From a virus, in IMG/VR virus record IMGVR_UViG_3300035162_002132: DNA of 64,000 nt, one strand, 5' to 3'. Below, piece by piece: positions 46,841 to 61,742 of this stretch (position 1 is its first letter; each line of letters starts with the position of its first letter). The notes below the pieces were generated by a model. It was given only the letters and a program-made list of their open reading frames with translations. It was not told the DNA's origin and searched no databases. A program made the position numbers and the translations under genes.

Positions 46841-47053
46841 TTATTTAAAGTCGGTAAGCCTTGTTTGCCTAAACACTTTCTCTAGTATCACGTTAGTCAT
46901 CTCTTTTGTAGCGGATTTAATTGCGATTAGTTTTCTATCTAAAGCAGGGTCTAATTGTCCTTGTGCCTTAATATCGTTAATTTCTTCTCGTATGTTATTG
47001 AGTATGGTAGTGGCTTTTTCTAGCAATTCACGATTTAATACCTCATCCACCAT
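46841..47053 (-). CDS. Small coiled-coil protein (start revised to 47053)
   Basis: MVDEVLNRELLEK...; the longer ORF-track start crosses a poly-T tract and dyad element. Confidence 0.6.
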   Translation of the reverse strand: MVDEVLNRELLEKATTILNNIREEINDIKAQGQLDPALDRKLIAIKSATKEMTNVILEKVFRQTRLTDFK

Positions 47054-47188
47054 AGCCTTGCGTAAGGGGTTAAACAAATTAACCTTGTTAATAGGTAGAG
47101 AAAAAAATAAATTGTAAAGCAAAGCATATGGTTGGAGTACTTTGTTACATAGACCACAAAGCCCCTTGCGGGACAATGGGTGTTAGTC

Positions 47189-47917
47189 TCACTCTTCTTC
47201 TTGAGTGGCATTACGAGCATCAATGGAGGCTTGCTTTCTCATTGCAATGATGTCGGGAGTACATTCTGAAGTTGATAATGTCTGACAACGGAAATTACAA
47301 TCAATATCTACTGGTGTGGTTGTACCTATTGCATCTTCAACTAAACTCTGAATCAGAGCAAGGTCAAGCAAAGGTAAAGCAATCATATTCTCTTCAATAG
47401 CCTGTTTTCTCGCCACCTTTGAAGTTGTCCAAGTAGTCTCGAACTTAAGAACAAGACCATCAGAAGAATTACTCAGACTAGGAGTCATACGAACATCCTC
47501 ACCATAGAGCAAATGCAAAAAGTCGTAAGACTTACTGGCGTTAGTTACATCATCAGAGATATACATCGAAGAACCTCGTGGTTGACCCCATACTTGTTTA
47601 ACTGATTGGGTTGTTTCTTTACTATAATCACAATCAAAACCGTTTTCTGTCAACTGCTCTTTCCACGCACGTGCGTCAGAGGAATATGTGGTTGTAATAG
47701 CGGGTTTATCGTCTATTGTAACGTGCCATTCGTGAGAAGTAGTAGTATCATCAACTAAACCATAAGTAACTTCGGGTTGGCTACTACCATAGTGAGAAAT
47801 AGAGCATAAATACAATCCACTCTGAGATAATTTCAAGGCTGCTTTAGAGAACTCTTTATCGCTCATCTTTTCTTCTGAATACTGGTATCGGGCTGTTTGC
47901 ACATAGGTCACTGACAT
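47189..47917 (-). CDS. Early/host-interaction hypothetical protein (242 aa)
   Basis: Leaderless start about 24 nt after CCCTTATACC TATA box. Confidence 0.75.
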   Translation of the reverse strand: MSVTYVQTARYQYSEEKMSDKEFSKAALKLSQSGLYLCSISHYGSSQPEVTYGLVDDTTTSHEWHVTIDDKPAITTTYSSDARAWKEQLTENGFDCDYSKETTQSVKQVWGQPRGSSMYISDDVTNASKSYDFLHLLYGEDVRMTPSLSNSSDGLVLKFETTWTTSKVARKQAIEENMIALPLLDLALIQSLVEDAIGTTTPVDIDCNFRCQTLSTSECTPDIIAMRKQASIDARNATQEEE

Positions 47918-48059
47918 GATATATGCTCCAAAAGTACGGTATAAGGGTATTCGTTTAACAAAGTATCTCTTACCATATGGTTGTAATTACTTTGTGACTA
48001 TGAAGACCCCAACTAGTAGAGGAGGCCATTTCTGACCCCCCCTACGGGGTTTTGCGTGT

Positions 48060-48605
48060 TTACTCGGTTGTTGGGGGTGTTTCCACTGCCGGAGCAGTTT
48101 CAACCACTTTTTGAACAATTAAGTTCTTCAAAGCCTTACCCTTGACGTATTCGTAGTCTTTTGAACTACCACGAATCGCACTGTGTACTCTAGCATCGAA
48201 TGATGCGAGTTCATAATCTGCGAAAGTTTCAGCATTGTCAAAAACTCCGCCGCCACCTCTTTTGCTTTTTACAGCAAATCTCTTGAAGAAAGTAGTATTC
48301 CAAAGAGTAATCAAAGCAGTTCTTGCTTCTGCTCTAGGTGTAGCATAGTCTTCAAGTAGTTCTGAATCCATTGTTGAAGCCTTTCCTGTTTTGAAAGGAC
48401 TGGTTAATACATCCATAAAGAGAGTACGAACAGTAGACATAATTCTACTTCTTCGCTCTGCGTTTTTCTTACCTTTCTTCATAAGACGAGTCAAAGAATC
48501 TAAATCCTCCGAATAGTTGTCATGTCCCTCGACATTCCAACCCTTATTGGCTTTTTGCCATGCTTTCACTGTTACTTCAAAGTTATTCCATTTTTCATCA
48601 ATCAT
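48060..48605 (-). CDS. Early protein, paralog A
   Basis: Own promoter and AGGAG RBS; aligns by eye with 50242-50712. Confidence 0.75.
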   Translation of the reverse strand: MIDEKWNNFEVTVKAWQKANKGWNVEGHDNYSEDLDSLTRLMKKGKKNAERRSRIMSTVRTLFMDVLTSPFKTGKASTMDSELLEDYATPRAEARTALITLWNTTFFKRFAVKSKRGGGGVFDNAETFADYELASFDARVHSAIRGSSKDYEYVKGKALKNLIVQKVVETAPAVETPPTTE

Positions 48606-48787
48606 TATTGGTTGCTCCTAATATATATTGGATTTTTGGGGTATAAGGGTATTCAGATTCACAAAGTAGTTCATACCATATGGTAGGATACTTTGTCGTC
48701 ATGCCCCGAAGGGTGAGGTTATACATATTCCCAACTCTCAAATATGTATTCTTTAGTTATAATCCTCAATTGTAATTGCATTAACAC

Positions 48788-48949
48788 TTATTCACCTTCA
48801 ATGTATATTGTCTTAACTATATTATCACTATATAGAACGTATTCATACATCTTCAAATAGCATTCCTCACACAAATCACCGAACTCAGGTAGTGAGTAGT
48901 AGTGAGGTTTCCCACATTGATATTGTTCACATCTTCTTTCTTTACTCAT
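48788..48949 (-). CDS. 53-aa Zn-finger microprotein (not in ORF track)
   Basis: MSKERRCEQYQCGK...LCEECYLKMY. Confidence 0.55.
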   Translation of the reverse strand: MSKERRCEQYQCGKPHYYSLPEFGDLCEECYLKMYEYVLYSDNIVKTIYIEGE

Positions 48950-48962
48950 GCGTCATCCCCCA

Positions 48963-49115
48963 TTATTCCACTTCCACAGGTAAGTTTACTCCACAATTCT
49001 CATTAGAGCATACATACCATAACATCATCATCGGTTTTCTAGTAAACATATTAAAATCACTCCTTTCATATGTATGGCCTTCGTCTATATCTGTATTGCA
49101 TTCTTCACATCTCAT
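48963..49115 (-). CDS. 50-aa Zn-ribbon microprotein (not in ORF track)
   Basis: MRCEECNTD...YVCSNENCG; GGAG RBS. Confidence 0.6.
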   Translation of the reverse strand: MRCEECNTDIDEGHTYERSDFNMFTRKPMMMLWYVCSNENCGVNLPVEVE

Positions 49116-49121
49116 TCCTTA

Positions 49122-49298
49122 TCACTCCTCACTATATCCATCAAACCACATTCCACGCTTCGATAAGTCAGAACAAGTTGAACCACTTGTTTCCGGGTCT
49201 TGACAATGTTCTTGTGCTTCTTCGAGCGTTAACCCTTTTTTTATAATCTTAGTAGACGCTCTATTAGCCCACATTCTAATAATGTAATAAGTTGACAT
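49122..49298 (-). CDS. 58-aa protein of a widespread small phage family (not in ORF track)
   Basis: IIKKGLTLEEAQEHCQDPETSGST...WFDGYSEE; GAGGAGG RBS. Confidence 0.7.
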   Translation of the reverse strand: MSTYYIIRMWANRASTKIIKKGLTLEEAQEHCQDPETSGSTCSDLSKRGMWFDGYSEE

Positions 49299-49381
49299 TA
49301 TTCTTCCTCCTCTTCAAAGTCCTCGTCTAAATAAGAGTGGTCTTCTGATGTCATGCTATCAGGAAAATTATTTCTAGGCAT
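49298..49381 (-). CDS. 27-aa acidic micropeptide (not in ORF track)
   Basis: MPRNNFPDSMTSEDHSYLDEDFEEEEE; fills the gap between coupled ORFs. Confidence 0.45.
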   Translation of the reverse strand: MPRNNFPDSMTSEDHSYLDEDFEEEEE

Positions 49382-49382
49382 T

Positions 49383-49694
49383 CTAAATACCCCCACTGTT
49401 TAAATTGTTATACAACGTACACTCTACCATGAACCTTTTTGATTGATAGTTATTATTAGTACCTACTAACATATTTGATAAGAGTTTAACTTGATGGCGT
49501 GTTAAACCAAGTTCATGTGACATTTGAACTAACCATTCATAGTGTCTTCTAGTGAAAAGTGTGGTAGAAGGTACAGGATACGATTTACCTTTGGTACTAT
49601 ATCCGCATGAACACACTAATTCAATTAAATTATCTATATCTTCTATTTCCGTTGTATCACCACATTTAGGACAGTCTATAACTTCTGCTTGCAT
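49383..49694 (-). CDS. Zn-ribbon protein
   Basis: CPKC...CSCG; leaderless, about 24 nt after CCCTATATATACC. Confidence 0.7.
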   Translation of the reverse strand: MQAEVIDCPKCGDTTEIEDIDNLIELVCSCGYSTKGKSYPVPSTTLFTRRHYEWLVQMSHELGLTRHQVKLLSNMLVGTNNNYQSKRFMVECTLYNNLNSGGI

Positions 49695-49818
49695 GATATT
49701 AACTAAGTAATACTGGTATATATAGGGTTTTTACGACAAAGTGCCGAACCATATGGTTGGTACTCGCCTTTGGCAAGTTAAACCCCAAAGGGATGGCCCG
49801 AAGGCCAAACCTATTGGA

Positions 49819-50076
49819 TTAACGATAATTATCGTCTACATGGATTTTATTCATTTTATACGGGAGATTAGTCAATATGCTCTGTATTGCATGCATTCTT
49901 GCCTGACCGTTTCCACGGATTGCTCCGTTCAATGTAGCAATCTCACGAGATAATAATCGTATGATTCTATCATTACGACTTTTCACATCTTTCATTGCAT
50001 CTCTCTCATAAGCATAGAAACCTCGATTGATTTCATTACCATTATCTTCACGCATTACCACTTGGTACACTTTCAT
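49819..50076 (-). CDS. Early hypothetical protein (start revised to 50076)
   Basis: Leaderless start after CCCTAATATATC; followed by GGCC-UUCG-GGCC hairpin. Confidence 0.7.
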   Translation of the reverse strand: MKVYQVVMREDNGNEINRGFYAYERDAMKDVKSRNDRIIRLLSREIATLNGAIRGNGQARMHAIQSILTNLPYKMNKIHVDDNYR

Positions 50077-50241
50077 GATATATATCAAAAAAAATAGATA
50101 TATTAGGGTACATTTAACAAAAGTATAGTACCATATGGTGGGAAGTACTTTGTCACTGTAACCCCATATAGGTTGGAGAGGAGAGGAGAATTAACTCCTC
50201 TACCTCTCTCGATTGCTGCGAAGGGATTTAGAGACTCCCGT

Positions 50242-50712
50242 CTATTGTTCTCCTCCGGTTGGAAGAGTAGCCGCGAGACTCTCGTGTGTTCCGTCCCAAG
50301 TACCTGACTTAGAAAGGTTCACTGCTGTGCTGTTTATGTTCTTTAATGCACTTGCTGCCCATGAAGCACCGTTAGCATAATGCTTAACTTTACTTCGTTG
50401 GTTTGGTAGCATTAATGCTTTGATAGCATCTCCACCGTTGTCGAATGCTTCAGCCATTGCATTAATTGCTTCTGTAACTGATGTCATAACTGCTTGACCT
50501 TCGGCAGGTAGAGCATACCCTCTCTGACCGTATGGTGCGTTAGCGTAATCCCTAGCAATCTCTCGAATGGTAGAAGAAATACGAACTTGACGTGATTCAT
50601 TACCCGAACCTTTGTCAATCATTTTTCTTATAGTGGAGGCATCTGCCTTATCCACTGTCGTATCTGCGTCTAGCCATGCTAATGTTGTACCTGTAAATTG
50701 TTTCCATTCCAT
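50242..50712 (-). CDS. Early protein, paralog B
   Basis: GGTGA RBS; own promoter; followed by strong hairpin at about 50176-50210. Confidence 0.75.
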   Translation of the reverse strand: MEWKQFTGTTLAWLDADTTVDKADASTIRKMIDKGSGNESRQVRISSTIREIARDYANAPYGQRGYALPAEGQAVMTSVTEAINAMAEAFDNGGDAIKALMLPNQRSKVKHYANGASWAASALKNINSTAVNLSKSGTWDGTHESLAATLPTGGEQ

Positions 50713-50871
50713 CTTATATCACCTATTAATATTCGGTTCTCTCAAACCCTTCGTAGCACTATTATACTAGAATTAACGATATATGAGGTTTCTGCTACAA
50801 AGTGCTACAACCATATGGTGGGACTACTTTGTAAGGGACACCTCATATACCACTATTTCACTACAAGTAGT

Positions 50872-51057
50872 ATGTCAAGACTCATTGAAGGCAAAGTATA
50901 TCCTTATGAATTAGAAGTAGGTCATTCTAAATCAGGCTCACAACAAGTATTAGTAATTAAGAGCCTTAAAGTCAAGGGTGATGACCTTGCACAAGCATTA
51001 GAAGAATTAGATTCGGCCATAACCGTGTTTAACTCAATAATTAATCAAAACAATTAA
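50872..51057 (+). CDS. Small early protein (start revised to 50872)
   Basis: Leaderless after CCTCATATACC on the right flank of the dyad at 50797-50832. Confidence 0.65.
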   Translation: MSRLIEGKVYPYELEVGHSKSGSQQVLVIKSLKVKGDDLAQALEELDSAITVFNSIINQNN

Positions 51058-51059
51058 CT

Positions 51060-51535
51060 CCCATATGGGGCTGAAAGTGGATTGGTCGAAATCACAGGAT
51101 TTTATTAAAAGACCCCACTCTTAGACTTGTCAGAACGTTTGTTCTTGTATCCGTCATAATTTCAACGACATATGCATCATAAAGGTAGCGAATAGAAGCC
51201 ACCGAGTATGTATAATTCATCGGTTGAACACTTAAACGAACTACAAACTTCCCACTGTTTAGAGAACGAAAAAATATCACCGTTCACCGAAGCCCCATAC
51301 TCACACTCCTGTTATCAAAGATGGTTTAAACCAAGTAACGAGCCAACGTCAGTAATCAAAACAAAGCAGACCTCTCCTACAACGCATACTACGCCGAATA
51401 ACCCTTAACTTAATTGTTATGTGACATACTGTATCGAATACTAGTACAACGATAGAAGTCCCTGTTCGGAATTGCCTCTCTAGTGCATTGTCTTAAGTCT
51501 AATTCACTGTTTACTGACCGAGGCTCGTTCAGCCT
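51060..51535 (-). ncRNA. Candidate structured ncRNA (left)
   Basis: Own dyad and TATA (51557-51569); no credible ORF; hairpins AGGCU-GAACG-AGCCU (51521-35), GGUGGC/GCUACC (51184-203), CUUCGG (51286-93), CCCAUAUGGG (51060-69). Confidence 0.5.
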
Positions 51536-51659
51536 TACTCTTTTTTGCACATTTTTGGTATATATGGGGATGCCGACAAAGTGGCCTACCATATGGTTGT
51601 AATTTTTGCAATAGAAATAAACTCGGCAGAGGTGTCCGCAGAGGTGGCAGGGCTATATA

Positions 51660-52150
51660 TACCGAATCTGCGAAATATATATTGTCAGACGGCGCTTTCA
51701 AAGCGCATGTTTACCCTAGTACAATATATAATCAGCACATGTTGCTAGATACACAACCCTTGACACCTAAATAACACTACAATTTATTGGGTATAAACTA
51801 CCCTCCCTATATAGTATAGTATAATGTACTAATATTAGTATAGTATAAAATATAATTAATATCTATATTGTAACAGTCTCTGATTCTACCATCGTTTATC
51901 GTCCTTTATCTAGTCAAATGATAATTGGAAACGTAGAAAAGGTGGCTTTCTAAGTCATATACTTATATTTTATATATTCATTTATCATTTATTATTATTA
52001 TCATATATATATTATCTAACTTACACTCACATATTATCTACTACTATCTACCATTACCTATTACTATTATATTATTAGGGCATGATGATAAACGGGATAA
52101 ACAATAAATGGACAGGAAAATCTGCGATTCCTGCATAATTTCGCAGAATA
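51660..52150. other. AT-rich putative replication origin or genome-end region
   Basis: Coding-strand switch point; 14-bp palindrome TACTAATATTAGTA (51827-40); inverted TTTATC/GATAAA pairs; inverted repeat TCTGCGAAAT (51667-76) and ATTTCGCAGA (52138-47). Confidence 0.5.
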
Positions 52151-52660
52151 ATACTTATCATTGCCATATAGAAATGGCAGATAAATGACACTCAACAACA
52201 CATGGAAGACAAGAAAGGCGTTTGGCTAACTTAGCGGTTAGTCATATGACAAGTGACGTAGTGACTCTTCGGAGGAATGACTGAACGACTAAGTATTGGC
52301 ATGGTTGAGATTGTAGGTTACTTTCAGTAATTGAATGAATAGATACAGGAGTTCGCCCTTCTAGCAAAACGATGACAAGCCCTACTTCGGTAGGTGAGTT
52401 GGAATTTTGAGAGATTGAGTACCTAGCACTTAGAAGATGTCTTTGTGCTGCTTTGCGCTATAAAAAAGAGCAGTCGGTATTGTGGTAAAATCATCGGTCA
52501 TGTTACTTCAACAGGACACATCCCCTCCGAGGAAGATGGCATAGCACATTCGTTCACCCTACAACTCACACTCAAAATATCACATATATTCGGGAGTCAA
52601 ACCCTTAGTATTAGGGGTGCAGGAAATCCATACCTGCATCCCAACACATTCAACAATCGG
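52150..52660 (+). ncRNA. Candidate structured ncRNA (right)
   Basis: No credible ORF; stems UGGCUAAC/GUUAGUCA (52223-44), CUC-UUCG-GAG (52265-74), CCUAC-UUCG-GUAGG (52381-94), 10-bp GGGGUGCAGG/CCUGCAUCCC (52614-42), enclosing CUCAAC/GUUGAG (52191-52309). Confidence 0.6.
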
Positions 52661-53498: not shown

Positions 53499-54032
53499 AT
53501 GGCAAGAATTAATAAAAATATAAATTACAATGGTCTTAACACTAAAGGAAGAACACGACATAAATCACAGCGAACATGTACTTTCATCAATGAAGATGGT
53601 CACAGGTGTGCTCGCGTATTTGTTGGATATACAACTAAACATACTCGTTGTAGCGAACACAGTCCCGATGGTGTGGATAAAACAAGTAATCAGAGAAACA
53701 TATATTCTATGAATGCTAAGTCTGACGACATGCGAACTTTCATCCTTGAACTAATGGATAAAGATGCAGCAGGACTACTACGCGGTGGAGATGGTATTAC
53801 TACTATTAAGGAAACTATCAAAGGATTAGAAACCGAAATTAGTGAATTAAAAACTATCATATCTGCTGTCAATGATGAGAACAAACTGCTCAGGGAATCA
53901 AGTGGCGCGGACGAAATAGCAGGACTAAAAAAACAGGTCGAATCCTTTAGAAAAACATCCCTAGCCAATTCAGAACGTATCGTGAATCTCAACACTAATG
54001 TAAGTGCTATCACGAATAAATGGGGATTATAA
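53499..54032 (+). CDS. Zn-finger plus coiled-coil protein
   Basis: C...C...CSEH; heptad-rich C-terminus; GGAGG RBS. Confidence 0.7.
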   Translation: MARINKNINYNGLNTKGRTRHKSQRTCTFINEDGHRCARVFVGYTTKHTRCSEHSPDGVDKTSNQRNIYSMNAKSDDMRTFILELMDKDAAGLLRGGDGITTIKETIKGLETEISELKTIISAVNDENKLLRESSGADEIAGLKKQVESFRKTSLANSERIVNLNTNVSAITNKWGL

Positions 54033-55251: not shown

Positions 55252-55497
55252 ATGAATAAACAAGAAAGTAATGTAGAATTTAGGATGGTTAACGATGATG
55301 AAATGCCACCTATGGTAATAACGATGAATGACAATGATGAAGTTAAGGTAGTACTTAACCAACGTTTTTTAATTTGGCTATCGCTAAATAGAAAGACAAT
55401 TGGTGGATTGCCTGAAGCACTGTATGGTAAAATAGACATGCTTCTAGACGGATTCTTGAGAGAACAGAGAAGCAACGAAAGGTTGGATTTAGAATGA
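55252..55497 (+). CDS. Hypothetical protein
   Basis: GGAGG RBS. Confidence 0.7.
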   Translation: MNKQESNVEFRMVNDDEMPPMVITMNDNDEVKVVLNQRFLIWLSLNRKTIGGLPEALYGKIDMLLDGFLREQRSNERLDLE

Positions 55498-56672
55498 ATG
55501 ATATAGATAATGAGATGAATTTAAAGAAAGGTAATAATTATCCTGCTTTAACTGCAAGATTGTTAGCACTATCTGAATCGGATGACTATGATATAGCCAA
55601 GAAAGAATGGCGTATCACAGGTAAGGTTTGGAAGAAATCACCTGTCGGAAGATATAGGCATTTAATTCTTAATCACCCTAGTAATCATCCCTACCACTGT
55701 TTATGTGGTAAAGATATTGTATATCATTTTGAGATTGAGAACACTAAAACCGGTGTTGAAGAAATAGTTGGGTCTACATGTATTAATAATTGGATGGTTC
55801 TCAGACATATGTCTGAAACTCTTAACATTCCAATTAGTGCTATTACAGAAGCAAAGATAGAAGAATGGAAAAACACATCAGTTAAGACTTTGATTAGACA
55901 AGCATGGTGGGACGAAGAAGGTGAAGAGTTCACTAAGTTATATGAAGAAATCATGGACTTGGATTTAAGACTTAATGTTAGGACAACCGGAAAGAAGTAC
56001 TACGATACTACATTAAAAGAATGGAGGCCGGTTACTTTTCTAAGAAAGACAGGTTCAGGTAAGTTCGGTAGAGAAGATTATCAAATGGCATCTATTGTTT
56101 GGAGATATAATCATCCTGATAATAAGAAGTCTCAACTGGGAACACGAGGTTATCCTAATGAGAAACTATTGAATGATATGGATTTGTTTTCAGTATATAT
56201 TGATGAGTACCTAGAAAAACTAGGTGTTGAAGATAAACACATTGCAGACAGAAAGTTATTTCTAGAGAATCTTGGTTTAGATGTTAAGGATAGAATGGGT
56301 AAACTCAGAGAACATGACATAACAGAACGTAAGTTCTTAGAAGCCTGTCTTTACTTTGGTTATCCTATATTTGATGCATATGAAGACGGGAATACTTCTT
56401 GGGAACGTGGCTTTTTGAGAGATATGAAGCGATTATTTGTTCGTGGCGGAGAACCAACTGAAAGTCAAGCCGGAAGGTTAAAGGAGATATTACTAACACG
56501 TAAGTTTGCTACGGCGACAGAACCACAACTGAACTTTCTAAAAGGATTAGGATACGAAGGGGATATGACATTACTTACTAAAAAGCAAGCATCTGAGGAG
56601 ATAGATAAGTTGAAGAAAACAGATGCTTACCCAGTAGTAAGAAACGGAACATGGAGGGAAGTTTATGAGTAA
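55494..56672 (+). CDS. Zn-binding protein with C-terminal DNA-binding-like helices
   Basis: HCLCGKDI...VGSTCI; SWERGFLRDM; ATEPQLNFLKGLGY...ASEEIDKL. Confidence 0.7.
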   Translation: MNDIDNEMNLKKGNNYPALTARLLALSESDDYDIAKKEWRITGKVWKKSPVGRYRHLILNHPSNHPYHCLCGKDIVYHFEIENTKTGVEEIVGSTCINNWMVLRHMSETLNIPISAITEAKIEEWKNTSVKTLIRQAWWDEEGEEFTKLYEEIMDLDLRLNVRTTGKKYYDTTLKEWRPVTFLRKTGSGKFGREDYQMASIVWRYNHPDNKKSQLGTRGYPNEKLLNDMDLFSVYIDEYLEKLGVEDKHIADRKLFLENLGLDVKDRMGKLREHDITERKFLEACLYFGYPIFDAYEDGNTSWERGFLRDMKRLFVRGGEPTESQAGRLKEILLTRKFATATEPQLNFLKGLGYEGDMTLLTKKQASEEIDKLKKTDAYPVVRNGTWREVYE

Positions 56673-59240: not shown

Positions 59241-59564
59241 ATGTTAATCAAAGAAAAAGATTTCCTTACCTTTGAATATGCGATTAAAGAAAGTGTAAAC
59301 ATCCCTCATAGGGTTCGTATAGATAAGAGTTATAAAATGTATAAACAGGGAAATCTTAGATATAGACAACTATATCACACAATGGAGCGTACTATCGTGG
59401 GAGGTCAAAGTTCTTTCAAATCAATGGAAGAATTGGCTGAACACATAGAACGAAGTGCATGGTATCTGCATAATTATAATGATACTAAATATTGGGAAAA
59501 TAATAATAATAGGACTGATAAAAATGGTAAAAATAAAAATAACAATCCCCTCAGTGGGAGATGA
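59241..59564 (+). CDS. Hypothetical protein
   Basis: 107 aa ORF, coupled. Confidence 0.6.
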   Translation: MLIKEKDFLTFEYAIKESVNIPHRVRIDKSYKMYKQGNLRYRQLYHTMERTIVGGQSSFKSMEELAEHIERSAWYLHNYNDTKYWENNNNRTDKNGKNKNNNPLSGR

Positions 59565-60858
59565 TGCGAGTAATTTCATAACTAGTAGTTTCTTGTTTAG
59601 GTCATCACAAAAAGGATTATTCCCTATGTGGAATAGGATAAAGCGTAATGATGTTATATGTTTTGAGCAAGTAAGACATTCTATGAACAGTTTTGGTGAA
59701 TTAGCATATCAAGTAACTAGGCCAAACCTATCTAACCTTAGAGGTGAACTAGACCCTATACTAACTAACACATCTTCAACAATAAATAACCTATTCCTTA
59801 CTAAAGTACAGGACAGGAACTTCCTAAATACTATTACTTTCAAATATAACGATGGTGAAAGTATTATTATTTATGGTAGGAAAGGTAGTGGACACCATAT
59901 TGATGGTGTTAGAGTTAGTAAGAAAGACCTTACAACTACATTAGCCAAAATAATAATCAGAGGTGCGTTTGTTCGAAGTGTAGATATAATGGATGATTAT
60001 ATTGACAAGGTTATTCACTATCCACCTAATGTATTACATGCAATAGAGAATAGAAGTATTTATTGGTTTTACGAGGCAGGAGAAAAGCACGAGGTATTAA
60101 TTAATACTAAAGTCATTAGTGAAACTGAGTGTGCTTTAGAAATATCAGATGGTATTTGGGGAGCAATAACTCTTAAAGATTTAAACGTCTTCATAAATAC
60201 CTTTAGATTTGGGCAATCTAAATCAAAGACATGGTATAGAGCAAAACCTTCGGTACTATGGTCACTACTAATGGGTAACGAACCAACAGAAATACAAAAC
60301 AAACTATGTATCGCATGGTTGATGCAAAACCGTAAACAAGATATGGTTGAAGATAGAGCAACTAAATTATTACATGATATGGATAGAGAATATCCAAACA
60401 TAACTCTAGTTCAGTTCAGAAACCCAATGAATAAGGCTCTTTATGTCAGAGGTAAAGTTAGTGATTGGGTTATTGTTGATGAAAGAAAGGGTATGAAACT
60501 CGGACATCAAAATGTTAACACCTATATGATTGGAGCAAAGACAGACACTGGCTCTAGATGGCATGGACATAATATTACTGGCCCAATTTGTATTGATAAT
60601 ATTCACAAGAACTCTAGTATTGGCGACCAACTAACTGCTAGAGCATTAGCATTAATGAATGATAGAAACTCTATGGGTAATATATATACAATACGAGACT
60701 ATGTAGTAAACAGACAGGCAATACAGAATGGATGGTCAGAATCAGCATACGATGCTAACTTCCGTATTAACCCTAGTAGTCTAAACTCTTGGTCTAAGCA
60801 AAAAGAACAGAATTACATAACCAAAATGGCTGAATCTGCTAAGACAGGTGGAGCGTAA
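59524..60858 (+). CDS. Large protein with putative C-terminal E2/UBC-like domain (start revised to 59524)
   Basis: HNITGPICIDN resembles the E2 active-site H-x-N...G-x-I-C-L pattern; same operon as E1, JAB and Ubl. Confidence 0.45.
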   Translation: MVKIKITIPSVGDDASNFITSSFLFRSSQKGLFPMWNRIKRNDVICFEQVRHSMNSFGELAYQVTRPNLSNLRGELDPILTNTSSTINNLFLTKVQDRNFLNTITFKYNDGESIIIYGRKGSGHHIDGVRVSKKDLTTTLAKIIIRGAFVRSVDIMDDYIDKVIHYPPNVLHAIENRSIYWFYEAGEKHEVLINTKVISETECALEISDGIWGAITLKDLNVFINTFRFGQSKSKTWYRAKPSVLWSLLMGNEPTEIQNKLCIAWLMQNRKQDMVEDRATKLLHDMDREYPNITLVQFRNPMNKALYVRGKVSDWVIVDERKGMKLGHQNVNTYMIGAKTDTGSRWHGHNITGPICIDNIHKNSSIGDQLTARALALMNDRNSMGNIYTIRDYVVNRQAIQNGWSESAYDANFRINPSSLNSWSKQKEQNYITKMAESAKTGGA

Positions 60859-61742
60859 TGAAATGTATGGAATGTGGCTCAACTGATTCTTCTTTCGATG
60901 ATAGGTTGGGCTACCATATATGTGTTGATTGTGGTTTAGTACTCAATGTTGAAATCTTTGAAGAAAGCCATACTCCTATTGCTAGGGTTGCTGATTCTAA
61001 ATATAATTTAGGTAGTACTATTAGTAATGGTAATTATAAACAGGCGCGTAAACATAGGTTTGAGTTAAACCATTTAAAGTCAGAAGGTAAGACTAAATAT
61101 TGGTCTGAAGGTGATATAGCGGCACACAATATGTGTATGATGTATTTATCTTATTACAGAGATAGAAGTAATATATCTCTTAGAGATAGGGTCGAACATT
61201 ATTATCAGGAACTACAAAAGAATAGAGTATTACTTGGGTTTCCAACTGATGTTAGAGCAGCAGGACTTGCTTATTTTATATTAAAGGATGAAGGTATTTT
61301 TGTGTCTCTTAAGCATTTAGCAAAGTTATCCTTGATTAGTAAATCCAAGATTATGCGAGTAGCCAAGAAAATAGCCAAGTTCTACCGCAAGTCACACATC
61401 TTTTCGCAGCGAAATATACACGAGATAATATCTGCCTGTTTAGATATTGCAGATGGACACAAAACAGATAGAACAGCAATATTCTTATTCGTAGAATACG
61501 TTAATGATTACTATGAGACTATCAACATGCGAATGGGTAATGGGGAAATAGGCGCGGCTATATATATAGCGAACAAAATAACAGGGTTTGGTTTGACCCA
61601 AGAGCAAATACGCAATGCTGTAAACACATCAGACTCCACACTTAGAAGACATGTTGGTTTGATTTGTGTGTTAATAGAAATAGATAGAAGTAAACTACAT
61701 AATTACGAAATACAAGAAATAATAGGAGGAATTAAAAAATGA
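60858..61742 (+). CDS. tfb: Transcription initiation factor IIB (TFB) homolog
   Basis: N-terminal CMECGS...HICVDCGLVL Zn ribbon; two cyclin-like repeats (AAGLAYFIL, GAAIYIA, LTQEQIRNAVNTSDSTLRR HTH). Confidence 0.85.
   Translation: MKCMECGSTDSSFDDRLGYHICVDCGLVLNVEIFEESHTPIARVADSKYNLGSTISNGNYKQARKHRFELNHLKSEGKTKYWSEGDIAAHNMCMMYLSYYRDRSNISLRDRVEHYYQELQKNRVLLGFPTDVRAAGLAYFILKDEGIFVSLKHLAKLSLISKSKIMRVAKKIAKFYRKSHIFSQRNIHEIISACLDIADGHKTDRTAIFLFVEYVNDYYETINMRMGNGEIGAAIYIANKITGFGLTQEQIRNAVNTSDSTLRRHVGLICVLIEIDRSKLHNYEIQEIIGGIKK

Follow-up and report, generated by a model that had tools for sequence, protein, structure and literature searches.

A 64,000-nucleotide stretch of viral DNA (IMG/VR record IMGVR_UViG_3300035162_002132; the whole of it is called the window here) carries a 4.5-kb run of small genes in which the same tripartite dyad, a core between two half-sites, recurs seven times and is followed, at six of the seven copies, by a core promoter of one particular type. 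This dyad-headed design very probably controls a single class of highly expressed genes, and we consider it probable that the array consists of autonomous cassettes of one magrovirus regulon, the dyad being read by a symmetric DNA-binding factor that acts on the recruitment of TBP (TATA-binding protein) and of TFB (transcription factor B). The data fit an uncultured ocean virus of archaea, a tailed virus of the magrovirus type, as the source.

Dyads, promoters and units of the cluster

The pattern CAAAG(T)-N5-9-(A)CCATATGG(T)-N5-9-(A)CTTTG has seven copies in the run of small genes, between 47120 and 51608, and all seven are intergenic, as a model's sequence-only reading of this DNA had claimed; the qualification to be made is that the leftmost copy is a distinct variant and not an ordinary unit. 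The strict form ACAAAGT-N4-8-ACCATATGGT-N4-8-ACTTTGT matches three times in the window and in none of 100 shuffles, and in four copies one half-site is degenerate. There are six exact copies of the 10-mer core ACCATATGGT, all within 3.6 kb (47972-51597) and none elsewhere in the 64 kb, and the core AGCATATGGT at 47123 differs from it by one mismatch; when up to one mismatch is allowed, 16 matches are found against 2.6 expected. Ordinary dyads are 380-1070 bp apart (most gaps are 700-1070 bp), with a gene between each pair. The seven copies, which have no strand, are:

47120-47145: boundary variant, counted among the four copies with a degenerate half-site; left half-site CAAAG abuts the core AGCATATGGT (47123-47132), right half-site ACTTTGT at 47139-47145
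47958-47995: perfect 8-6-10-6-8 tripartite dyad, already pointed out in the sequence-only reading and confirmed here; strict-pattern match
48661-48696: tripartite dyad, strict-pattern match
49736-49772: dyad with degenerate right half-site (CCTTTGG)
50117-50153: dyad with left half-site CAAAAG
50797-50832: tripartite dyad common to two divergent promoters, strict-pattern match
51576-51608: rightmost dyad, right half-site degenerate

The HMG-box factors of eukaryotes bind the site (A/T)(A/T)CAAAG, and the half-site (A)ACAAAG(T), for example at 47957-47964, is written with the same letters, which we take as coincidence.

Read along the minus strand, six dyads have the element (A)CC(C/T)(T/C)ATA(T/A)A 8-10 nt further on and then a start codon, and two of them (50797-50832 and 50117-50153) also have an ACC-type element on the plus side, which gives seven dyad sites and eight promoters for the window. 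The sequence-only reading had placed six dyads upstream of a CCC(T/C) block plus TATA, had described symmetric promoters around 50797-50832, and had noted a second right-flank TATA at 50162. All of these were found again, the symmetric pair with both ACC elements 21 nt from the core and heading 50242-50712 (minus) and 50872-51057 (plus). The elements are:

47940-47948, minus: ACCCTTATA, core promoter of 47189-47917, ATG 31 nt past ACC
48642-48650, minus: ACCCTTATA, core promoter of 48060-48605
49719-49728, minus: ACCCTATATA, core promoter of 49383-49694, leaderless type
50099-50109, minus: ACCCTAATATA, core promoter of 49819-50076
50161-50170, plus: ACCCCATATA, promoter-like element on the right flank of the 50117-50153 dyad, no open reading frame (ORF)
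50780-50789, minus: ACCTCATATA, core promoter of 50242-50712
50840-50849, plus: ACCTCATATA, core promoter of 50872-51057
51561-51569, minus: CCCCATATA, core promoter directed into 51092-51560, where there is no credible ORF

At four of the eight window promoters the ATG lies 31-34 nt past ACC, usually about 31 nt, and in the leaderless-type units of the window and of the divergent relative G002 the TATA centre is about 25-27 nt from the ATG. The archaeal core promoter has its TATA element centred about 26-27 nt upstream of the transcription start; thus, the ATG stands at the expected start, and the mRNAs from these four promoters should be leaderless. The paralogues 48060-48605 and 50242-50712 have leaders with ribosome-binding sites instead. 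The element ACCCCATATA is directed into a hairpin and the 3' end of 50242-50712, is kept together with the 3' end of that gene in the relative L004, and may be an antisense or relic promoter. Readings of the promoters as sigma-70 or Bacteroidetes -33/-7 elements were dropped once the portal protein had placed the virus among the archaeal tailed viruses.

Most cassette genes are singletons. The genes that these promoters head, or that lie next to the boundary variant, are:

46841-47053, minus: 70-aa gene, first after the boundary variant, homologues in 8 related loci
47189-47917, minus: 242-aa gene of no known family, leaderless-type unit
48060-48605, minus: 181-aa gene of family A3, paralogue of 50242-50712, short leader with AGGAG ribosome-binding site
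48788-49298, minus: three small ORFs (53, 50 and 58 aa; two cysteine-rich) downstream of 49383-49694 and probably on the same transcript
49383-49694, minus: 103-aa protein with N-terminal zinc ribbon and C-terminal family A6 domain
49819-50076, minus: 85-aa gene, leaderless type
50242-50712, minus: 156-aa gene of family A3, leader of about 45 nt
50872-51057, plus: highly conserved 61-aa strand-strand-helix protein, leaderless type, 26 related loci

The ORF at 48788-48949 is unique to the window and is missing in relatives. Iterated profile searches found two families, A3 and A6, inside the cluster in all six genomes compared, namely the window and five complete relatives. Family A3 (150-180 aa) is the most widespread cassette family, with 29 loci and two or three paralogues in most genomes, and its start codon is always 87-105 nt from the dyad core, farther than in other cassette genes. 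The family of the 61-aa protein was detected in four of the six genomes. Searches of the cluster proteins against Pfam, PHROGs and the ESM Atlas gave no match, and comparison of the A3 profile with solved structures gave spurious matches only. The model of the 61-aa protein (predicted local distance difference test, pLDDT, 78) had no Foldseek match in PDB, and its best VIA match was Pcc1/Gon7 with Z 4.0, which is at noise level.

Several units end in RNA hairpins. The three that had been claimed near 48704, 49795 and 50176 all fold, and there is a fourth at 48006-48050:

48006-48050, minus: GC-rich hairpin past the stop of 48060-48605, -29.4 kcal/mol
48699-48716, minus: small C(UUCG)G hairpin ending the preceding unit, -4.3 kcal/mol
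49789-49812, minus: GGCC(UUCG)GGCC hairpin past 49819-50076, -13.7 kcal/mol
50176-50208, minus: strong hairpin past 50242-50712, -22.5 kcal/mol

Across the window and its relatives, dyad arms that have no promoter fold to -11.3 kcal/mol, compared with -7.4 kcal/mol for shuffled arms (p = 6e-14), and 39 loops of the C(UUCG)G type lie in them on the incoming RNA strand.

RNA was available as assembled contigs from three seawater metatranscriptomes of three studies, derived from relatives that are 95-99% identical to the window, and because such contigs are blind to strand, true ends and levels, this evidence is consistent with the unit structure but weak. There is one contig per unit (47213-47903, covered in two runs, 48063-48557, 49120-49667, 50214-50735 and 50893-51487), and none bridges a dyad. 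Contig depth in the cluster reaches 908, compared with less than 7 over the head genes at 43-47 kb, a 10- to 100-fold difference, and is highest in the region over 50242-50712 (178, 40 and 908 in the three runs). The contigs of that gene end at 50214-50218 in all three runs, just short of the hairpin at 50176-50208, and other contig ends, at 48055 and 48063, lie beside the hairpin at 48006-48050. On the 5' side, the contig ends at 47903, 50735 and 50893/50896 are 14-24 nt inside the starts predicted from the TATA elements. The contig 50893-51487 starts 21 nt within the 61-aa gene and extends across 51092-51487, where there is no ORF; this stretch may belong to the mRNA of 50872-51057 as a long 3' portion, or be transcribed convergently from the promoter at 51561-51569. 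A 27-nt insertion at 47545, inside 47189-47917, sets the viruses of the RNA samples apart from the window, as does a contig joint that skips 48775-49000, with the stretch holding 48788-48949 replaced; both are further cassette-level variation.

Conservation and anatomy in related viruses

Conservation in relatives was one of the two counts on which the sequence-only reading had said that its proposal could be refuted. When the exact tripartite motif was looked for in IMG/VR, it proved to be conserved, with 50 loci on at least 43 viral contigs, many of them 77-103 kb long and many with two to four copies. Each of the five complete genomes (92-103 kb) has the motif confined to one cluster of 3-5.5 kb, with 5-12 dyad sites per genome, and of all copies of CCATATGG in the respective genome, 12 of 13, 8 of 8, 6 of 7, 5 of 6 and 6 of 6 lie in the cluster and have half-sites; a reversed-pattern control found no match in the same five genomes. 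Core and half-sites are unchanged even in distant genomes whose TFBs are just 27-33% identical to that of the window.

The anatomy of the element was derived from 230-270 unique sites in the window and its relatives. The only conserved blocks are the core (A)CCATATGG(T) and the half-sites (A/G)CTTTG(T), and the spacers between them are 5-9 bp long. Symmetry between spacers is at chance level (30.8% against 28.5% expected), and arm lengths are unequal in 122 of 168 full dyads. We therefore rejected a reading of the dyad as an RNA hairpin or a cruciform, as the spacers are neither complementary nor equal in length; free and unequal spacers point to separate protein contacts rather than a hairpin.

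The promoter belongs to the same anatomy. The pattern CC..TA.A occurs within 2-16 nt on 117 of 392 arms, compared with 10.6 (maximum 20) in shuffled arms. The bases just upstream of TATA are A-C-C: CC was demanded by the search, but the A was not, and it precedes CC in 111 of the 117 cases, which gives the consensus ACC(C/T)(T/C)ATA(T/A)A, with a weak A-rich stretch at -5 to -3. The gap from half-site to ACC has its mode at 8 nt (36 of 119), and on 51 of the 117 arms with a promoter-like element CC is 27-33 nt from the ATG, with a sharp peak at 29-31 nt and no other. In the divergent G002 the TATA part has decayed (e.g. ACCCTATCAAATG), but the distance from ACC to ATG is still 31 nt, which indicates that the ACCC block is at least as constrained as TATA. 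Of 26 sites with a single half-site and a single promoter, 21 have the two on the same side. Beyond the cluster, the six genomes have almost no ACC-type promoters close to genes; this cluster specificity indicates that the dyad and the ACC promoter form one composite element of one gene set. The cluster genes of G002 are on the plus strand, away from the head operon, those of the window are directed toward the head operon, and those of G001, G003 and G004 have mixed directions, so the units seem to work in either orientation.

The boundary variant stands apart from the ordinary dyads. In the window it lies upstream of 46841-47053, is read on the minus strand from 47131 to 47098, has no ACC-type promoter, and is joined by one further feature:

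47098-47119, minus: A/T-rich run CAATTTATTTTTTT next to the boundary variant

Exactly one such variant is present in each of the six genomes (the window and G001-G005), and about 17 loci carry it besides. It is always at the end of the cluster that faces the head/structural operon, and the form CCATATG(G)CTTTG-N3-7-(C)AAATTTTTTWTTTT is kept in all six genomes. The A/T-rich run could be a promoter with canonical TFB recognition element (BRE) and TATA box, presumably late, for the operon starting at 47053 under the same factor, or an oligo-T terminator, or an unwinding element.

The last of these possibilities leads to a different view of the whole array, in which a replication initiator or partition protein binds the dyads (as iteron, origin recognition box or parS-like sites) near an origin and the link to promoters is incidental or autoregulatory. 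The cluster does adjoin a strand switch and GC-skew turn at about 52 kb and an unusually conserved 940-bp non-coding stretch, and in each genome the single boundary variant is next to a long A/T-rich run, a possible unwinding element. Nevertheless, sites that are 380-1070 bp apart over 4.5 kb, with genes between them, are unlike origin repeats, and only the boundary variant adjoins an A/T-rich run, which is equally readable as a canonical BRE/TATA or an oligo-T terminator. Each ordinary dyad is locked to a promoter and a start codon, and the skew change coincides with a change of coding strand, so that no origin is needed to explain it. We regard a role as origin or partition sites as hardly likely.

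The window also encodes a portal, prohead protease, capsid, terminase, tail tube, ATP-dependent DNA ligase and ribonucleotide reductase, as well as a ubiquitin-like activation set. The closest annotated relatives of the portal protein are those of haloarchaeal tailed viruses of about 102 kb, which agrees with the earlier view that the DNA is viral. The coding strand left of about 51.7 kb is the minus strand, with the plus-strand gene 50872-51057 lying within the cluster, and the strand switch coincides with the turning point of GC skew at about 52 kb, beside the dyad cluster. The cluster region has no DNA match among GenBank phages, and an Rfam search over 46.5-53 kb gave no match. Magroviruses rank with the most abundant surface-ocean viruses and are uncultured; our literature search found no paper linking them to promoters or motifs, and the core sequence turned up in published papers solely inside cloning primers. 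As a separate observation, the stretch 51552-52495 (about 940 bp) has no credible ORF, is 79-83% identical to three relatives and is better conserved than most of the adjoining coding sequence, and in one metatranscriptome RNA contig depth is 116 over 52203-52556.

The factor that would read the dyad

The mechanism that we propose starts from a cassette in which the dyad would be centred about 60 bp upstream of the start, followed 8-10 bp on by the ACC promoter, a small fast-evolving gene and a 3' hairpin. A symmetric oligomeric factor would occupy the core and the two half-sites. With a start about 26 nt past the TATA centre, the geometry would put the centre of the dyad at about -60 and its proximal and distal half-sites at about -45 and -76, and the proximal half-site would touch the position of TFB, giving control over TBP/TFB recruitment at a promoter class that is used nowhere else in the genome. 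What the data show is the anatomy with its conservation and its restriction to one cluster, the separate and abundant RNAs, and the breakpoints at dyads; protein binding, direction of action, identity of the factor and timing of expression are what we infer. Archaeal activators such as Ptr2 and TFB-RF1 have their sites upstream of BRE/TATA and work by recruiting TBP or TFB, whereas repressors overlap BRE/TATA or the start (PMC5569661). We favour an activator by analogy, because the dyad is upstream, its proximal half-site abuts the TFB position, and the core promoter has no obvious strong BRE; that strong early promoters are repressed later by a product of their own, as has been suggested for Aca8 of Sulfolobus islandicus rod-shaped virus 2 (SIRV2), is conceivable. 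The sequence-only reading had called the array a viral regulon resembling a host-takeover module. Its core stands, in that separate units share a conserved dyad and TATA element, but for a factor that is dimeric and encoded by the virus there is only a candidate, and its view that the CCC block takes the place of a BRE is no more than a possibility, given the A-rich stretch just before ACC.

That reading had also suggested that the viral TFB might assist the factor, and a gene for such a protein is indeed present:

60858-61742, plus: viral TFB homologue, 294 aa, zinc ribbon and two cyclin repeats

The zinc ribbon matches PF08271 with 29.8 bits (cut-off 29) and its profile matches 1PFT, and a cyclin repeat matches PF00382 with 23.9 bits (cut-off 23.6). 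In a profile of 13 viral TFB homologues, residues 107-275 align with the Pyrococcus TFBc structures 1D3U and 1AIS (E = 1e-9), and the alignment takes in the VTEVT(V/L)R helix; the BRE-reading helix looks conventional. All TFB-bearing contigs that are at least 60% complete have the dyad cluster, 8-10 kb from the TFB gene, and conversely the relatives with the cluster all have TFB if they are complete enough. The gene is thus co-conserved with the cluster, but nothing ties TFB to these promoters, where a role for it is a hypothesis. No viral TBP was found in the relatives. TFB homologues are known from some rudiviruses and Asgard viruses (PMC13700489), so that a viral TFB as such is not new. Between the dyad cluster and the TFB gene, all six genomes keep homologues of two plus-strand proteins of no known family, one of 392 aa with a Cys/His cluster (55494-56672) and one of 459 aa (59479-60858).

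The best candidate for the factor within the cluster is the family A6 domain, although our confidence in this assignment is low. The domain has about 55 aa and three helices, with the signature FxRRHYxW...TNxNF...RF. The zinc ribbon of the A6 protein is N-terminal in the window and C-terminal in G001. The family is inside the cluster in six of six genomes and adjoins a dyad in the five where this is readable. The domain was modelled as three helices with pLDDT 92-97 (88 for the whole 103-aa protein). The modelled homodimer is symmetric, formed via helices 1 and 2, with pLDDT 90, an interaction prediction score from aligned errors (ipSAE) of 0.82 compared with 0.46 for the best control, and 100% contact agreement between runs; in the calibration of the tool, the mark attained by A6 was reached for 20 out of 30 solved homodimers and for 1 out of 23 monomers. 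The models support dimerisation of the domain. The 103-aa model has no significant match in PDB, AFDB or VIA, the best (Z 5.9) being generically helical; against it, DNA-binding three-helix domains (HMG-C1, DEK, homeodomain) give Z 4.5-5.3 with poor root-mean-square deviation (rmsd), and the HMG-type match to the three-helix domain (Z 5.3, rmsd 4.6 Å) is at noise level. The A6 profile gave only spurious matches among solved structures. Other conserved small proteins of G002 have no informative Pfam match. The 177-aa protein at 53499-54032 (plus), which has a basic N-terminus, a Cys/His cluster, a long coiled coil and a weak match to the TSC-22 zipper (E = 3.9e-5), was rejected as a dimeric regulator as it has no homologue in the five complete relatives.

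It is possible, though we doubt it, that the same anatomy is read by a factor of the host (Marine Group II / Poseidoniales), in the way that Sta1 activates promoters of SIRV1. Host regulators of archaeal viral promoters are known (PMC5569661), the same core and half-sites recur in viral clades with proteins that have drifted apart to about 30% identity, no viral DNA-binding fold has been recognised, and if the cassettes are the very first genes to be expressed, the factor must pre-exist in the cell. On the other side, the dyad-coupled promoter type is specific to the viral cluster, and the viral A6 protein is universal, dyad-headed and predicted to dimerise. A scan of 596 Gb of cellular genomes returned, among the matches listed, scattered single sites in unrelated bacteria at about the rate expected by chance for 18 fixed bases with variable gaps, with no cluster and no Poseidoniales record, but a pattern so loose makes this weak evidence that is uninformative on the host. 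On balance, a viral factor is more likely than a host one.

A more far-reaching version of viral control is that ACC is a virus-specific BRE read by the viral TFB while the dyad is read by a viral dimer, together defining a private promoter class that would redirect the host RNA polymerase to takeover genes, with the boundary variant, fused to a canonical A/T-rich promoter, letting the same factor switch the structural operon. We think this unlikely, but if true, this private class would be an archaeal counterpart of sigma-factor switching in phages or of MotA/AsiA in T4.

Several observations weigh against our proposal of a regulon controlled by a symmetric factor. In the relatives, 46 full dyads have no promoter on either arm that is recognisable with the pattern used here. 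Spacer lengths vary by several bp and are not compensated by the promoter gap (r = +0.29), which is not easily reconciled with a single rigid protein and suggests binding modules of two types. The identity of the motif in genomes with strongly diverged TFBs means that a slowly evolving host factor fits at least as well as a viral one. Neither the A6 domain nor the 61-aa protein has a significant structural match to DNA-binding folds, and a dimer of 55-aa domains might span the core, but hardly the full 36-38-bp site. The term 'non-canonical promoter' holds by comparison with other archaea and may differ with respect to the consensus of the host. Finally, RNA contigs assembled from relatives cannot reveal strand, true starts and ends, or levels.

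Cassette shuffling and relation to known systems

The cassettes are also rearranged between close relatives. The units 49819-50076 and 50242-50712 have swapped order in three relatives (L004 and two contigs) and the order of the window in L031, and the aligned segments of the swap overlap exactly over the dyad-promoter modules 49696-49757, 50095-50170 and 50760-50822. Further breakpoints of gene content, at 48705 and 51552, are at most 25 nt from a dyad, and about half of the breakpoints are not at dyads.

These rearrangements bear on the alternative already raised by the sequence-only reading, namely that the dyads are primarily recombination sites, acted on by a recombinase or designed as crossover points, through which promoter cassettes are moved, with transcription secondary. 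Besides the unit swap and the breakpoints in or beside dyads, the singleton nature of most cassette genes favours it, and the promoter-terminator repeats of T4-like phages, the promoter early stem-loops (PeSLs), are a precedent (PMC2839356, PMC4122927). However, the Pfam matches of the window include no integrase, resolvase or other recombinase family, and recombination leaves unexplained both the fixed geometry to TATA and ATG and the half-site kept on the promoter side. Since repeats of about 70 bp suffice for the units to be shuffled by ordinary homologous recombination, and since about half of the breakpoints are off the dyads, the association looks like a by-product of the repeats, and we consider a primary role in recombination very unlikely. 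In the cassette regulon that we prefer, the repeat modules of about 70 bp would double as substrates of homologous recombination, by which cassettes are reordered and replaced.

Conserved regulatory sequences are known to head small early genes of archaeal viruses, and in crenarchaeal viruses strong early promoters are switched off later by a small protein that regulates its own gene (PMC11065993). SIRV2 and other rudi-, lipothrix-, bicauda- and fuselloviruses resemble the present case in that a virus-specific promoter sequence is repeated before small, mostly single, fast-evolving and clustered genes; a small regulator with its own upstream motif has been proposed there (Aca8; gp37 of Sulfolobus monocaudavirus 2, SMV2) as it is here, with A6 as candidate, and the SMV2 motif holds inverted repeats, like the dyad (PMC11065993). 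However, the promoters of those viruses have a canonical purine-rich BRE plus TTTAWATA, with the conserved sequence overlapping the core promoter, whereas in the magrovirus a 36-38-bp dyad with free spacers lies wholly upstream of an ACC-type element (PMC11065993). The strong canonical BRE plus TATA core of that class was not found here, where the consensus is ACC(C/T)(T/C)ATA(T/A)A and the TATA of G002 is weak. Early timing and anti-defence function have been shown for SIRV2 (PMC11065993), whereas for the magrovirus cassettes it is analogy that suggests that they are probably early, host-takeover or anti-defence genes. Moreover, the published systems are crenarchaeal, and the present one belongs to a tailed virus with a marine euryarchaeal host (PMC11065993).

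Ptr2 of Methanocaldococcus jannaschii and TFB-RF1 (PF1088) of Pyrococcus furiosus are similar in having a site just upstream of BRE/TATA, with proposed recruitment of TBP or TFB to a weak promoter, but their sites are cellular, bipartite at most and experimentally proven, while the magrovirus site has three blocks with variable spacing (PMC5569661). In the PeSLs of T4-like phages, a terminator hairpin and an early promoter likewise flank small ORFans in a plastic genome region and mark swap points between close relatives, but these are bacterial sigma-70 promoters without a separate factor-binding dyad, whereas the magrovirus has an archaeal promoter and its palindrome is the most conserved part (PMC2839356, PMC4122927). 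Thus, the concept of repeated sequences before the early genes of archaeal viruses is already published, and what is new, and well supported, is the conserved regulon architecture in a magrovirus.

The combination of dyad and ACC-TATA promoter offers a sequence handle for picking the most transcribed and fastest-evolving viral genes out of any metagenome, and by analogy with crenarchaeal viruses, the genes so picked would be the likeliest anti-defence or host-takeover genes. The dyad is also a defined DNA probe with which the regulator could be fished out, and the arrangement suggests where a virus-encoded TFB might act. Finally, the cassette repeats would provide a route by which new genes slot in and are shuffled in an archaeal virus.

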